Shown: piece by piece, positions 1 through 59,159 of the stretch | Layout: each line of letters opens with the position of its first letter | Numbering within the stretch: position 1 is the first letter of the stretch | Sequence record: PZ445435.1 | DNA: 64,000 nucleotides | From: a phage | Direction: 5' to 3' (one strand) | Position numbers and translations under genes: made by a program | The notes under the pieces: model-generated | What the model was told of the DNA's origin: nothing | Databases searched by the model: none | What the model saw: only the letters and a program-made list of their open reading frames with translations

Positions 1-686
1 GTAGTGTTCCAACGAAAAGAATCATTTTTAATCATCTTTTCAATTACATCTTTTATAGCTTTTTCACTATCAAAACTTTCTTTATTTTCCTTTGGTGAAA
101 AAAGCTTATTCTCTACATCGTTCCATGTATAAACTCGCTGAGCGGTTTTTGGAATACTGTCACGTTCCCCTCGAGCCATCCAATACACAGGAACACGTAA
201 TATTTCACTCGCATGATCGCAGTGGTGAGCGAGATCGTCAATATAACAAATTACGTTATATTTCTCTTTTGCCTTTTTGAACAACTCTTCTTTTGAAGAA
301 TCATGACCACACATCATTACTTCTGAGAAGGCACCAGGAAAAAGAGCATTCAAATTAAATTGACGATTCAGCAGAGCGTCAATAGAATCACCCAATGCTG
401 TAACAGCTACAAAATTATAATCTTCTTTTAATTTGTTAATTACACACAGGGCATCTTTATATGGAGACAAGTAACGAATAAAATCTGAACGATTGTATTT
501 TTCAATTAGCTTAACGCCAAGCTCTTCATCGCAATTAAATAGTTTACCTGGAGAGATAAATTTCTCATCTTGGATCATTTTTAAAATATGTTCCAACGGA
601 AGATTATATTTCTGAGCAAAATAAGGAAGACCTGATTGCCAGCTTAAACATACTCCATCAATATCAGTTAAAATAGTAGGCTTCAT
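1..686 (-). CDS. HAD-like hydrolase, N-terminal ~228 codons (C-terminus lies beyond window start)
   Basis: Minus-strand ORF starting ATG 686..684 (ATGA overlap with upstream ORF stop); N-terminal MKPTILTDIDGV resembles HAD motif I (DxDG); position matches T4 30.2 region. Confidence 0.5.
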   Translation of the reverse strand, partial: MKPTILTDIDGVCLSWQSGLPYFAQKYNLPLEHILKMIQDEKFISPGKLFNCDEELGVKLIEKYNRSDFIRYLSPYKDALCVINKLKEDYNFVAVTALGDSIDALLNRQFNLNALFPGAFSEVMMCGHDSSKEELFKKAKEKYNVICYIDDLAHHCDHASEILRVPVYWMARGERDSIPKTAQRVYTWNDVENKLFSPKENKESFDSEKAIKDVIEKMIKNDSFRWNT

Positions 687-1147
687 AGAGAGTCTCTTAA
701 TAGGTTTAACACATCAATAAATTCAGCTTCGGTTAGTATTGTATCATCTTTTGTTAGACCACTAGCCATGCTGTGCTTCAAAACTTTTCCTTTCGAGGCT
801 TGTAATGCATCACGAAAGCCCTTGTTTTGGATCGCTGCTTCAAAATATGCATTTGTGTATAATTCTTTCCACGCCGGGGAGTATCTTGAAAACGGAACTC
901 CAAGCCAGAAGAGGGTCCCACGGTCCTGAGCTCTAGCATAAGACCTTCCAGCTTGTTGGGCGGCAAGCCCGGATAACCCAAATATACGACGTTGTTGTTC
1001 AACATTTTTCACCTTACACCCTTGGAGGAATCCTTCAAGACCTCCAAATTGAATACCATCCATAACGAAAGGCCATTGGACGAAATTACTTAATGCACAT
1101 GATGGCCACCTAAAATTACTTCTAATCTCTAACTCAGACATTTTCAA
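683..1147 (-). CDS. NADAR/YbiA-like domain protein (154 aa)
   Basis: ORF track; motif LSNFxxWPFxxDGxxF...E.FLQ..K resembles YbiA/NADAR signature; T4 30.3 position. Confidence 0.55.
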   Translation of the reverse strand: MKMSELEIRSNFRWPSCALSNFVQWPFVMDGIQFGGLEGFLQGCKVKNVEQQRRIFGLSGLAAQQAGRSYARAQDRGTLFWLGVPFSRYSPAWKELYTNAYFEAAIQNKGFRDALQASKGKVLKHSMASGLTKDDTILTEAEFIDVLNLLRDSL

Positions 1148-1340
1148 TGCTTATAATTTCAACATCAGCCCAATGACCATAGCAAGGAAGACGAAATTCA
1201 ACTGGCCAGTTAGGGTCCTTTTCTAATATAATAGACTTAACTTGTGGTTCTTCGTGTTCATCAGTATACGGATTTTTATCTGTTACTTTATATGTGACCT
1301 TAATGTACTGAATTCCAAAAATCTTATTAATTATATTCAT
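1134..1340 (-). CDS. hypothetical protein (68 aa)
   Basis: ORF track, tightly packed minus-strand early gene array. Confidence 0.4.
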   Translation of the reverse strand: MNIINKIFGIQYIKVTYKVTDKNPYTDEHEEPQVKSIILEKDPNWPVEFRLPCYGHWADVEIISIENV

Positions 1341-1534
1341 ACTAATTCCTTTAATCCGTAGATAGGAGATAATTCATCACCCATACGAAGGTCTTCATTT
1401 CCATCTACCCAGGAAACAATATAAGCCTCTTTTATTTGAATACCACTCCATTTAAATGGAGGTAGAACCTTAGAAATTAATCCAGGTATACCAACTCCCT
1501 TTAATTCAACGGTTTGACCTAAAAAGAATTTCAT
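1337..1534 (-). CDS. hypothetical protein (65 aa)
   Basis: ORF track, overlaps neighbours by 4 nt. Confidence 0.4.
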   Translation of the reverse strand: MKFFLGQTVELKGVGIPGLISKVLPPFKWSGIQIKEAYIVSWVDGNEDLRMGDELSPIYGLKELV

Positions 1535-1821
1535 TAAAACCTCATCTGAAAACCATGCGATTTAACGTTACCACCGCCAATATCAGAAATATTAATTTCA
1601 CGCGCAATTGAAGGGTCAATGTCAATTTCACGATTGAGTTTAGTGATAGCTAAAGTATCGCGCCCATTTACAGTACGGAACTCTAAAGGACAAACCACAT
1701 CAACGTAGTTTTTAATCGATTCGCTAGTAGGTTGCAAATGAGCAGGAAGGTCTTTGGGCGCCTTTGAGAAAACCACTTCACAGAAATTTTTGCGGGTATC
1801 AAAATAAGTAGTCATAAACAT
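1534..1821 (-). CDS. hypothetical protein (95 aa)
   Basis: ORF track; GAGGA Shine-Dalgarno upstream. Confidence 0.45.
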   Translation of the reverse strand: MFMTTYFDTRKNFCEVVFSKAPKDLPAHLQPTSESIKNYVDVVCPLEFRTVNGRDTLAITKLNREIDIDPSIAREINISDIGGGNVKSHGFQMRF

Positions 1822-1837
1822 AATATTTTCCTCAGTA

Positions 1838-1853
1838 AGGGGCCGAAGCCCCT
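1838..1853 (-). promoter_or_regulatory. intercistronic stem-loop (AGGGGC-UUCG-GCCCCU) immediately upstream of RBS
   Basis: Perfect 6-bp stem with UUCG tetraloop between two ORFs, no U-tract. Confidence 0.4.
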
Positions 1854-1863
1854 CATTTTATTT

Positions 1864-2241
1864 TTAAATATCAAATTCGTTAAGAACTACATCAAAGATT
1901 GCTTCCAAGTGCTCAGGTTTAGCTTTGTTACTCAGAATATGACGAATCCAAGTTTTAACTAAGAGTTTACGATTAGCACCATTCCAGCAAGGATGAGTCC
2001 CTAAATCGCGTTGGCGGAAATCATCATCCAGAGCGATTTTGAAGTTGGAACCTTTCATCGTGATTGAAACCGTGATACCGTTTTCAAATCGCATATAAAC
2101 GTAGTTAGGAGTCATATACTGTTCAATTTCGCATACTGATCCGTTTTGATGTTTCCAGAGGCAAATAGTATCAATAGAACCTGCAATACCATTAGAAACA
2201 TATTTACGTTCAAAGTTGATGTAGTTCATTTTATTCTCCAA
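1864..2241 (-). CDS. hypothetical protein (125 aa)
   Basis: ORF track. Confidence 0.45.
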   Translation of the reverse strand: MENKMNYINFERKYVSNGIAGSIDTICLWKHQNGSVCEIEQYMTPNYVYMRFENGITVSITMKGSNFKIALDDDFRQRDLGTHPCWNGANRKLLVKTWIRHILSNKAKPEHLEAIFDVVLNEFDI

Positions 2242-2264
2242 GATGTTTAATTGCGGTACAGGTA

Positions 2265-2294
2265 TATAATATCATATCCTGTACCAAAGTAAAC
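2265..2294 (-). promoter_or_regulatory. T4-type early promoter (-35 GTTTAC, -10 TATTAT region)
   Basis: GTTTAC at 2294..2289, -10 about 17-18 nt downstream; palindrome gtacagg...cctgtac encloses the -10. Confidence 0.5.
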
Positions 2295-2296
2295 AA

Positions 2297-2629
2297 TTAT
2301 TTTACTACTTTCCAATGCTGCATGTCAAGTTTACCAACTTTTTTCATCTTCTCAATTAAGCGTTCTGCACGTTGGCGAGCTGTAACATAATGCCATTCGC
2401 CTAATTCATTTTGTTCAATTTTTCCAACGATTACTGTATTCAATTCATAAATCCAACCAGTAAAGAAATTATGAACTTGAATTGTAAAGGTGAAATCTGT
2501 TCCCATACCTTCTGTTGTTTCTACTTCAATAATATCACCTTCAACTGCCATTAAGAACCACATAGTTTCATTATATTTACCATTGAAGCATTTAGTTTTA
2601 ACTGCAGCGTTCAGATTAATCGTTTTCAT
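2297..2629 (-). CDS. hypothetical protein (110 aa)
   Basis: ORF track. Confidence 0.45.
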   Translation of the reverse strand: MKTINLNAAVKTKCFNGKYNETMWFLMAVEGDIIEVETTEGMGTDFTFTIQVHNFFTGWIYELNTVIVGKIEQNELGEWHYVTARQRAERLIEKMKKVGKLDMQHWKVVK

Positions 2630-2656
2630 TTTATTCTCCTTTGTTTGTGTAAGATA

Positions 2657-2686
2657 ATACTATCACAAAGGAACCATACTGTAAAC
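2657..2686 (-). promoter_or_regulatory. T4-type early promoter (-35 GTTTACA, -10 TAGTAT)
   Basis: Motif match and spacing; just downstream of a terminator hairpin. Confidence 0.5.
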
Positions 2687-2708
2687 AACTTTGTGCAATC
2701 TTTGGAAA

Positions 2709-2734
2709 ATAAAAAAGGACTCCCGAAGGAGTCC
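2709..2734 (-). terminator. rho-independent terminator (GGACTCC-UUCG-GGAGUCC + U6)
   Basis: Perfect 7-bp stem, UUCG loop, T-run on minus strand. Confidence 0.7.
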
Positions 2735-2739
2735 TCAAC

Positions 2740-2916
2740 TTATGCTTTCTGCTTACCAAAACGAGAAGCATCATCTCGAAGAACCGCACGTGCTCGGCGC
2801 ATGATCTTCTCAACAGTTTGATTGATACGAGAGTTCGACCCACGCTTGTAGCCAGCGCGTTTAGAATCACCAACTTTCTTTTCAACTGCTTTCTTTGCTT
2901 TAGCTTGTTTTGCCAT
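2740..2916 (-). CDS. small basic protein (58 aa, start at internal ATG)
   Basis: ORF track; Lys/Arg-rich; T4 30.9 position. Confidence 0.4.
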   Translation of the reverse strand: MAKQAKAKKAVEKKVGDSKRAGYKRGSNSRINQTVEKIMRRARAVLRDDASRFGKQKA

Positions 2917-3204
2917 TATAAATTCTCTTTTAAATGAAAATGCAGGACTTATTGGCATTGCCTGCGAAAGCCCTCAAAGGGGTACTTAGGTTTTGAATAT
3001 TTACCGACAGGATAACCATAAACCCGTCATCATACCACCAAGACTTACACAGATAACACTTTTCTGACGCATGATAGTAACATTCAAGAGGTACACCATA
3101 AAACTGCCGGGGTCTTAAAACTATAATGATTCGCAAATCATTAATCAGACAGTTCGACGGCTCCTCGTTTTAACTTCACACTAAGGCAGTGACTCTCCAA
3201 TAAA

Positions 3205-3453
3205 TTACTTCAGTGTTACCACAAAGTGACGAACTGCTTTTCGTGCGGCAGAAGCCAGAGGCTTAGCATATTTAAGTTCATCTTTTTCCTGAAGCTCAGC
3301 AGCTAATGCAGTTTGAGCAGGATTCAGATGTTTGAAATAACGCAGGATTTCAAGAGCTTCGGCTTCAACATCAATAGATGCGCCATAGTTTTCGTGACCA
3401 TTATTCCATGCGTTTCGTTGCAGTTCAAGAGCGTGTTGTAATTGTTTAATCAT
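3205..3453 (-). CDS. rIII: lysis inhibition accessory protein rIII
   Basis: 82-aa product matches recalled T4 RIII sequence and position next to gene 31. Confidence 0.85.
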   Translation of the reverse strand: MIKQLQHALELQRNAWNNGHENYGASIDVEAEALEILRYFKHLNPAQTALAAELQEKDELKYAKPLASAARKAVRHFVVTLK

Positions 3454-3571
3454 TTAAAAATTCTCGTTAGAGATTAAAACTCGGTAGTCACGTTCTTCTG
3501 AATTTCATCTTCTTTCGACAGATCTCTCAGTTGTAGACTACCACATAGAATTGAAACTCAATTCATATTAT

Positions 3572-3579
3572 TATTTATA
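3572..3579 (-). promoter_or_regulatory. candidate late promoter TATAAATA
   Basis: Exact TATAAATA on minus strand upstream of rIII. Confidence 0.35.
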
Positions 3580-3915
3580 TCACTTATAAAGACACGGAAT
3601 AGCTTTATAGTGACAGGTAACAAATTTTTGTTTAATTTCTTTTGGCTGCTTAAGACCTAGAGCTACAAAAGGATGCGGAACGTTTCGAATTTGACCAACT
3701 GGAAGAGAAGTCAAATCACCAACTTCGCAGAAACCTTCAGGAACATCAGGACCAACAGAGTGAACTACACACAGTTCAGGAACTTCACCTTGGACACGTT
3801 TACCAATAATAAGTCCTGATTCTGTAACTTCTTCATCACCGGCTTGCGCAGGTTCAGAAACTAAAATAACATATTCACCGACAGCACGAATTGGTAGCTG
3901 TTGTACTTCAGACAT
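3580..3915 (-). CDS. 31: co-chaperonin gp31 (GroES analogue for capsid folding)
   Basis: 111-aa product matches recalled T4 gp31. Confidence 0.9.
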
Positions 3916-58153: not shown

Positions 58154-58510
58154 TTAACCTCTATTCATAAAAGCATTAAAAATTTGGTCATCAATAGATG
58201 GTGCAGTAATATTTTCTGCATCATTTAGCAAATCATTAATTTCATCAGATAGCATAACACATGTACCTTTATTTCCTGTAATTGTTACTGCACAATTACG
58301 AACGTTTTCTTTATCAAATTTTAGGTTAATATTTTCGTAGTGAAAATCCTTTAATGCCGAATATATCTTTAAAATAAAATTGTCTTTTACTACAATAAAC
58401 CCAACCTCACTATTAAAACGTGGTTCATGGAAACTGTAATAAACCTTTTCATCTATAAAATCGTATGAAATTTTTTCCATTTTTAAATATGAAAATTCAG
58501 AACTATACAT
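58154..58510 (-). CDS. hypothetical protein (118 aa), single-domain paralogue of next ORF
   Basis: Shares FIVVKDN-type core and C-terminal SIDDQIFNAFMNRG with 215-aa neighbour. Confidence 0.5.
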   Translation of the reverse strand: MYSSEFSYLKMEKISYDFIDEKVYYSFHEPRFNSEVGFIVVKDNFILKIYSALKDFHYENINLKFDKENVRNCAVTITGNKGTCVMLSDEINDLLNDAENITAPSIDDQIFNAFMNRG

Positions 58511-58511
58511 A

Positions 58512-59159
58512 TTAACCTTTATTCATAAAAGCATTAAAAATTTGATCGTCAATAGAAACTTTTACTTTAGGCTGTTCTTCAAACGGTAATTCATATCCAC
58601 ATATTACAATTTTGTGATCGATACCAAAATACACAGAAGCAATATGATTAATATTATTTTCAGTGAAATCTAAATCAACATCAATATCTTTTTGACTAAC
58701 GCTCAAAGGATAATTAATACGAATAATTCGATTATCTTTAACAAAGATTCCACCGACATACTCTGTGTTGCGTTTAAAGTTTACACGTTTCCTAAATGAA
58801 AAATATTCAGGTTCTTTATGAGCCCGACTCATAGGACACAATGAGTAGCTAGAATAAGAGATGTCAAATCCTACACCTTCAATATGAATATGAGCCAACG
58901 TGTCATGATTAAACCAATTATAATCATATGCCAAATCCATTATATTGTAATATGTGAAAGGCACCGGATTAACATCATATGTTGTACCTTTAAAATCTGC
59001 CCAGGCAACGATTTCGTTATCTTTAACAATTACAAAAATTGTGCCAATAAGATATCCACGGTTATTTTCATCAGGTGTTATATTATAACATTGTGCATCA
59101 GGAAATTTACCGTATTTAAACGGTGGATTTTTGTGCATATAATAAATCATATTATTCAC
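58512..59159 (-). CDS. hypothetical protein (215 aa), two-domain paralogue
   Basis: Internal duplication; identical C-terminal 14-aa module. Confidence 0.5.
   Translation of the reverse strand: MNNMIYYMHKNPPFKYGKFPDAQCYNITPDENNRGYLIGTIFVIVKDNEIVAWADFKGTTYDVNPVPFTYYNIMDLAYDYNWFNHDTLAHIHIEGVGFDISYSSYSLCPMSRAHKEPEYFSFRKRVNFKRNTEYVGGIFVKDNRIIRINYPLSVSQKDIDVDLDFTENNINHIASVYFGIDHKIVICGYELPFEEQPKVKVSIDDQIFNAFMNKG

Follow-up and report, generated by a model that had tools for sequence, protein, structure and literature searches.

The window analysed here (the whole 64,000-nucleotide stretch of phage DNA, sequence record PZ445435.1) carries at 683..1141 adfN (gene 30.3) of a T4-like phage, a gene already published and experimentally characterised, whose product is very probably a minimal, stand-alone NADAR-fold ADP-ribosyl-glycohydrolase that counters DarTG1. 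The identity of the gene, the NADAR homology and fold of its product, the conservation of its catalytic residues and the integrity of its C-terminal helix were established here on the window allele. As an annotation of the window, adfN is correct and brings no new biology; it also illustrates that a very weak NADAR signature is recognisable by eye. The features on which the argument draws are the following.

1..686, minus strand: gene 30.2, the first 228 of ~279 codons, beginning MKPTILTDIDGV, with the C-terminus beyond the window start
683..686, minus strand: junction ATGA, formed by the stop codon of 30.3 and the overlapping start codon of 30.2
683..1141, minus strand: coding sequence of gene 30.3 (adfN), 152 aa, with ATG at 1141 and the TGA stop at 685..683
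686..730, minus strand: residues 138-152, forming an intact C-terminal helix (modelled at 138-151), with no frameshift in the 152-aa frame
773..775, minus strand: CAC codon of H123, the last-beta-strand histidine by which phage NADARs are recognised
778..1005, minus strand: internal open reading frame 30.3', 75 aa, in the +1 frame of 30.3 and preceded by a Shine-Dalgarno-like AAGGTG
1013..1015, minus strand: AAG codon of K43, the catalytic lysine
1034..1036, minus strand: GAA codon of E36, the catalytic Glu of the NADAR E-x-F-x-Q-x-x-K motif
1134..1141, minus strand: junction ATGTCTGA, containing the stop codon of 30.4 and the overlapping start codon of 30.3

Over its first 3 kb the window is 100% identical to Escherichia phage PaulHMueller (MZ501098), known as Bas45 in the BASEL collection (PMC8594841), and 97.9% identical to T4. 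The frame of 154 aa that the initial annotation had placed at 683-1147, with the strand unstated, is real and lies on the minus strand, where the program's list of open reading frames begins it with TTG. The ATG at 1141, two codons past the TTG at 1147, is the likely start of 30.3, giving 152 aa, since it agrees with the T4 annotation of the gene and since the published numbering of E36 and K43 then fits. The segment 683..1141 occupies the position of T4 gene 30.3 between 30.4 and 30.2 (T4 annotation), and the protein is identical to T4 gp30.3 at 150 of 152 residues (99%), the two differences being A21V and I125M. Placement in the 30.x cluster had likewise been read correctly: the window runs 30.2-30.3-30.4-30.5-30.6-30.7-30.8-30.9-rIII-31, which agrees from 30.2 onwards with the T4 order (alt, 30, 30.1, 30.2, 30.3, 30.4 ... 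30.9, rIII, 31; T4 annotation).

The overlap ATGTCTGA suggests translational coupling of 30.4 and 30.3. A promoter and terminator scan of 1..3600 found nothing informative beside 30.3, with counts (15 against 11.2 +/- 3.0, and 4 against 2.1 +/- 1.6) not above the shuffled expectation. Elsewhere in the cluster, a strong terminator-like hairpin at 2715..2736 (minus strand), with a 9 bp stem GAGGACTCC-TTCG-GGAGTCCTT followed by a T-run, lies between 30.9 and 30.8, just past the end of the 30.9 ORF. The T4 annotation labels the internal frame 30.3' 'internal translation in a different reading frame'. Relatives with as little as ~85% identity still have it open, at 53 to 75 aa, and distant T4-like phages do not; since the frame lies over a constrained gene, its openness probably tells little about expression.

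An LSNF-type NADAR motif had been quoted in the initial annotation as the mark of a YbiA/NADAR-like protein, and it is present letter for letter in the 683..1147 frame, reading ALSNFVQWPFVMDGIQFGGLEGFLQGCK. By hmmscan the protein matches PF08010 (Phage_30_3) along the whole model (positions 1-138 of 138; E=1e-69; 233 bits, the cutoff being 36), and the window's gp30.3 gave no match to PF08719 (NADAR) at E<=1. The PF08719 search was the HMM check that had been named beforehand, with the lack of a significant hit and a predicted fold unrelated to NADAR proposed together as grounds for abandoning the assignment; as the protein belongs to a separate family, PF08010, only the fold half of that pair is informative, and the missing match was not taken to refute the assignment, given that PF08010 accounts for the protein and is itself related to PF08719. 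Cross-matches run in both directions: PF08719 is also matched by 8 of 56 sampled gp30.3 family members (best E 4.9e-6), and several YbiA homologues carry precomputed matches to PF08010. An NCBIfam scan returned no match for gp30.3, and its sole match in PHROGs was phrog_652, of 'unknown function'.

More distant comparisons point to E. coli YbiA. A profile of the gp30.3 family searched against PDB sequences placed YbiA (2b3w) at the top over the motif region at a sub-threshold E=0.062, and a broader family profile again placed it at the top, still sub-threshold (E=0.021). Alignment of the two families with hhalign (50 sequences for gp30.3, 21 for YbiA) gave, across 144 columns, a probability of 97.9% with an E of 4.7e-13. 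With the direct sequence searches null or sub-threshold, the proposed homology rests on the profile-profile comparison and the predicted fold, and together with the PF08010/PF08719 cross-matches these support gp30.3 of the window as a NADAR homologue, bearing out the YbiA/NADAR-like identity that had been suggested for it. An exhaustive search with the gp30.3 profile recovered 1451 representative clusters. Among the best 147 of these 1451, ~56 representatives with the gp30.3-type NADAR domain measure at least 230 aa, some of the longer proteins having tandem NADAR domains and others being joined to ASCH, DUF6939, NT5C, GDSL lipase or LRR; some of these multidomain architectures may be gene-call fusions.

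The AlphaFold2 model of gp30.3 (mean pLDDT 87.9, pTM 0.85) has helices at residues 35-41, 47-54, 58-66, 89-105, 107-115 and 138-151, plus short strands, and it reproduces the YbiA fold of a helical core with small beta-hairpins at its flanks. Against the PDB, Foldseek returned just three credible matches, all of them NADARs: YbiA (2b3w; E=3.7e-5, probability 1.00, TM 0.65), the NADAR/DarG1 of G. lovleyi (8bat; E=6e-3, probability 1.00) and the NADAR of P. nicotianae with ADP-ribose (8bau; E=5e-2, probability 0.99); the remaining matches had probabilities of at most 0.05. Comparison of an AlphaFold model with YbiA, the second check proposed at the outset, thus came out in favour of the assignment.

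Both the Glu and the Lys of the catalytic E-x-[FY]-x-Q-x-x-K motif are found in the window protein. E36 is invariant among diverse gp30.3 family members and is aligned by hhalign with YbiA E48; K43, aligned with YbiA K55, reaches at least 90% conservation among 50 to 56 diverse members. In T4 AdfN, the E36A mutant is impaired and the K43A mutant impaired or inactive (PMC11825919). A third catalytic position, on the last strand, is Glu in YbiA-type NADARs, Asp in the NADARs of DarG1 and His in phage NADARs (PMC11125620, PMC11543638), and the classification of De Souza and Aravind, as it is cited in PMC11125620 and PMC11543638, places gp30.3 proteins in a 'phage NADAR' family with His for the last-strand Glu. 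The window protein has that histidine: H123 falls on strand 120-124 of the model; close relatives all have it, and across 50 to 56 diverse members of the family its conservation is at least 90%. The published equivalence in which His replaces Glu was not reproduced residue by residue in the hhalign alignment, where the partner of H123 is YbiA H126 and that of the variable K122 is the catalytic Glu125 of YbiA (773..778, minus strand); the equivalence may depend on the structural rather than the sequence register.

The function of such proteins has been worked out in the literature. NADARs reverse the guanine ADP-ribosylation made by DarT1 (Schuller et al. 2023, PMC11543638), and T4 gp30.3 hydrolyses G-ADPr, and not T-ADPr, in vitro (Toxins 2024, PMC11125620); the in vitro activity of the T4 NADAR on G-ADPr extends to RNA (PMC11833690) as well as DNA, and C-ADPr is not hydrolysed (PMC12945103). 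Johannesman et al. 2025 (PMC11825919) renamed gene 30.3 adfN (anti-DarT factor NADAR) and found that T4 and T2 without adfN form no plaques on DarTG1 cells, that RB69 is rescued by ectopic AdfN(T4), making AdfN necessary and sufficient for the DarTG1 resistance of T-even phages, and that purified AdfN strips ADP-ribose off DarT1-modified DNA. C-terminal truncation impairs AdfN, and RB69, which loses the C-terminal helix through a frameshift, is DarTG1-sensitive (PMC11825919). Bas35-Bas47, comprising all Tevenvirinae of BASEL and including Bas45 (PaulHMueller), are DarTG1-resistant (PMC11825919, PMC8594841). The suggestion that a phage-encoded copy would act in counter-defence against DarT consequently stands for DarT1, which modifies guanine, on experiments with the 99%-identical T4 AdfN (PMC11825919, PMC11125620), and falls for DarT2, which modifies thymidine, as DarTG2 is not countered by T4 AdfN (PMC11825919).

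Enzymatic activity, in vivo necessity and sufficiency, and guanine specificity are literature results on that T4 protein, and by analogy they probably extend to the window allele. The same function is assigned to it because it is full length, retains the C-terminal helix and keeps all catalytic residues, and we infer that A21V and I125M leave function unchanged. The picture in which the enzyme alone suffices is incomplete, since T4 gp30.3 gives no rescue from DarT1 toxicity in uninfected E. coli (PMC11125620) and T4 AdfN gives only partial rescue of non-T-even phages (PMC11825919); full AdfN(T4) activity seems to need an additional T-even factor (PMC11825919).

In the methods of PMC11125620 the construct is given as 'E. 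coli T4 phage NADAR (gp30.3; residues 1-208)', and gene 30.3 encodes 152 aa; T4 gp61.2 has 208 aa, the same length as the construct stated there, and the figure of 208 is perhaps a misprint or includes a tag. The window also holds a homologue of gp61.2 (AdfA, the other published anti-DarT factor) at 58512..59159 (minus strand), with 73.6% identity to its T4 counterpart. Immediately downstream of it, a 118-aa ORF at 58154..58510 (minus strand) has only the C-terminal SIDDQIFNAFMNRG tail in common with it and is possibly a partial paralogue.

On the proposed mechanism, the DarT1 toxin of DarTG1 cells would move ADP-ribose from NAD+ to guanine (N2) in phage DNA, blocking replication. AdfN, which would be expressed from the 30.x cluster, termed early in T4-like phages, would use E36 and K43 to bind the ADP-ribose moiety, H123 standing in for the third catalytic acid, and would hydrolyse the N-glycosidic bond, releasing ADP-ribose and restoring guanine so that replication can proceed. 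AdfN would in effect be an orphan antitoxin borne by the phage, one that enzymatically repairs the DNA damage inflicted by a toxin-antitoxin defence, a role established for T4 in 2024-2025.

The neighbouring frame at 1..686 had been credited with a HAD-phosphatase motif, and that attribution holds. The gp30.2 family shows no variation at D8, D10, K132, D150 and D151 and at least 90% conservation at T96, these residues making up the four HAD motifs I to IV (DxDx[TV], S/T, K, DD). The gp30.2 profile searched against the PDB has as its top match the 5'(3')-deoxyribonucleotidase 2jao (E=0.033). The model of gp30.2 (pLDDT 81, with the HAD core above 90) has 94 Foldseek matches at E<=1e-3, and among the matches listed all are HAD-superfamily proteins (or engineered from them), including 5'(3')-deoxyribonucleotidases. 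No HAD model of Pfam or NCBIfam detects gp30.2 significantly, and its C-terminal ~80 residues are predicted to be disordered and are highly variable among relatives. On motifs and modelled fold, gp30.2 is a predicted HAD-superfamily hydrolase with a fold like that of 5'(3')-deoxyribonucleotidases.

It is conceivable, at low probability, that gp30.2 is the T-even-specific factor for full AdfN(T4) activity, with adfN and 30.2 forming a functional module in which gp30.2 would act on the released ADP-ribose or nucleotide product, or would stabilise AdfN. The 30.2 start overlaps the adfN stop (ATGA). In 21 of 80 viral loci (4 kb examined) a 30.2 homologue is either adjacent to the NADAR gene or no more than ~1.5 kb downstream of it; among close T4/RB69-type loci (84-99% identical) 30.2 is there in all but one, a locus that ends too short, and the co-occurrence could be plain inherited synteny. 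None of 147 representatives joins a gp30.2-type to a gp30.3-type domain, and one gp30.3-type representative has a fusion to an NT5C-type HAD domain. As positive evidence for functional coupling of gp30.2 and gp30.3 this pattern (only 21 of 80 loci, no gp30.2-type fusions) was rejected, and a cofactor role for gp30.2 is weakly supported.

E. coli YbiA, the best PDB match of gp30.3 in structure as well as in sequence, is an annotated N-glycosidase, and this would favour a YbiA-like housekeeping enzyme destroying reactive riboflavin intermediates (5-amino-6-ribosylaminouracil derivatives), in metabolic damage control and not in DNA de-ADP-ribosylation. The gene beside 30.3 encodes a predicted HAD phosphatase, a class that also provides the riboflavin-pathway phosphatase, and one gp30.2 homologue carries the source label 'FMN phosphatase YigB'. 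Such a role is nevertheless extremely unlikely: the last-strand Glu that defines YbiA is not conserved in gp30.3, where His123 is conserved instead; no riboflavin pathway genes stand beside 30.3 (T4 annotation); T4-type NADARs cluster phylogenetically nearest DarG1 and not YbiA (PMC11825919); and both a DarTG1 phenotype and G-ADPr hydrolase activity have been demonstrated for the T4 protein (PMC11825919, PMC11125620). The chance of an open frame arising by accident, or of a decayed pseudogene like the RB69 allele that yields no functional protein, is practically negligible, for even though the RB69 allele is frameshifted and weakened (PMC11825919) and several truncated relatives occur in databases, the window frame is full length with its C-terminal helix intact, matches the active T4 allele at 99% identity with the catalytic residues present, overlaps both neighbours at its start and stop, and comes from a phage group that is DarTG1-resistant (PMC11825919, PMC8594841).

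Protection from DarTG1 might also be one of several activities, the main natural substrate being another ADP-ribose conjugate, such as G-ADPr placed on RNA by another ART defence of the host, or soluble immune signals derived from ADPr. Removal of G-ADPr from RNA by the T4 NADAR in vitro (PMC11833690) is in keeping with this, as are the very wide spread of the gp30.3-type domain (the 1451 representative clusters), its occurrence without a T4 30.2 neighbour in 59 of 80 viral loci, the variety of its partners, and the poor performance of AdfN(T4) outside T-even infection (PMC11825919). Set against these, the necessity and sufficiency of AdfN against DarTG1 are directly genetic (PMC11825919), no other substrate is known in vivo, and T-ADPr and C-ADPr are not cleaved (PMC11125620, PMC12945103), which makes a different main substrate highly unlikely. 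RNA G-ADPr or soluble ADPr signals may still serve as additional substrates, a role at which the family's distribution and variety of partners hint. A DarTG1-countering ADP-ribosyl-glycohydrolase is accordingly the preferred reading of the window protein, and it can be placed among the NADAR systems already known.

E. coli YbiA (PF08719, 2B3W) is the best structural match and has the SNF-x-x-P...E-x-F-Q-x-x-K motif in common with the window protein, but identity between the two is only 18 to 21%, and YbiA is chromosomal, adjoins dinG and rhlE, has a role as a riboflavin-intermediate N-glycosidase and gives no DarT1 protection in vivo (PMC11125620). The NADARs of DarG1 (the BC4488 family; E. 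coli C7, G. lovleyi 8BAT) share the fold (Foldseek probability 1.00), the Glu and Lys pair and, for the T4 protein, hydrolysis of guanine-N2 ADP-ribose, and form the reported closest clade (PMC11825919). Unlike them, the window protein is an orphan: it does not lie in an operon with DarT1, no DarT1 toxin is adjacent, and no DarT gene is found among 30.2-30.9, rIII and 31 in the window, nor among T4 30.1, 30, alt.1 and alt beyond the window start. Its 152 aa amount to the core domain only, with the motif beginning at residue 17, whereas DarG1 has 219 aa with an N-terminal extension; His123 stands where DarG1 has the catalytic Asp of its last strand; and the T4 protein does not replace DarG1 in uninfected cells (PMC11825919, PMC11125620).

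Other phage orphans that neutralise DarTG1 are AdfN(Bas32), from a T5-like phage, and AdfN(Bas60), from an rV5-like phage, both specific for guanine-ADPr (PMC11825919); these differ in belonging to other NADAR clades, having been acquired independently, and in needing no T-even-specific factor (PMC11825919). Closest of all is AdfN(T4), which the window protein resembles in its position between 30.4 and 30.2, in 150 of 152 residues, in E36, K43 and H123, and in the full-length C-terminal helix, and from which it differs by A21V and I125M, both conservative, the latter two residues past H123.
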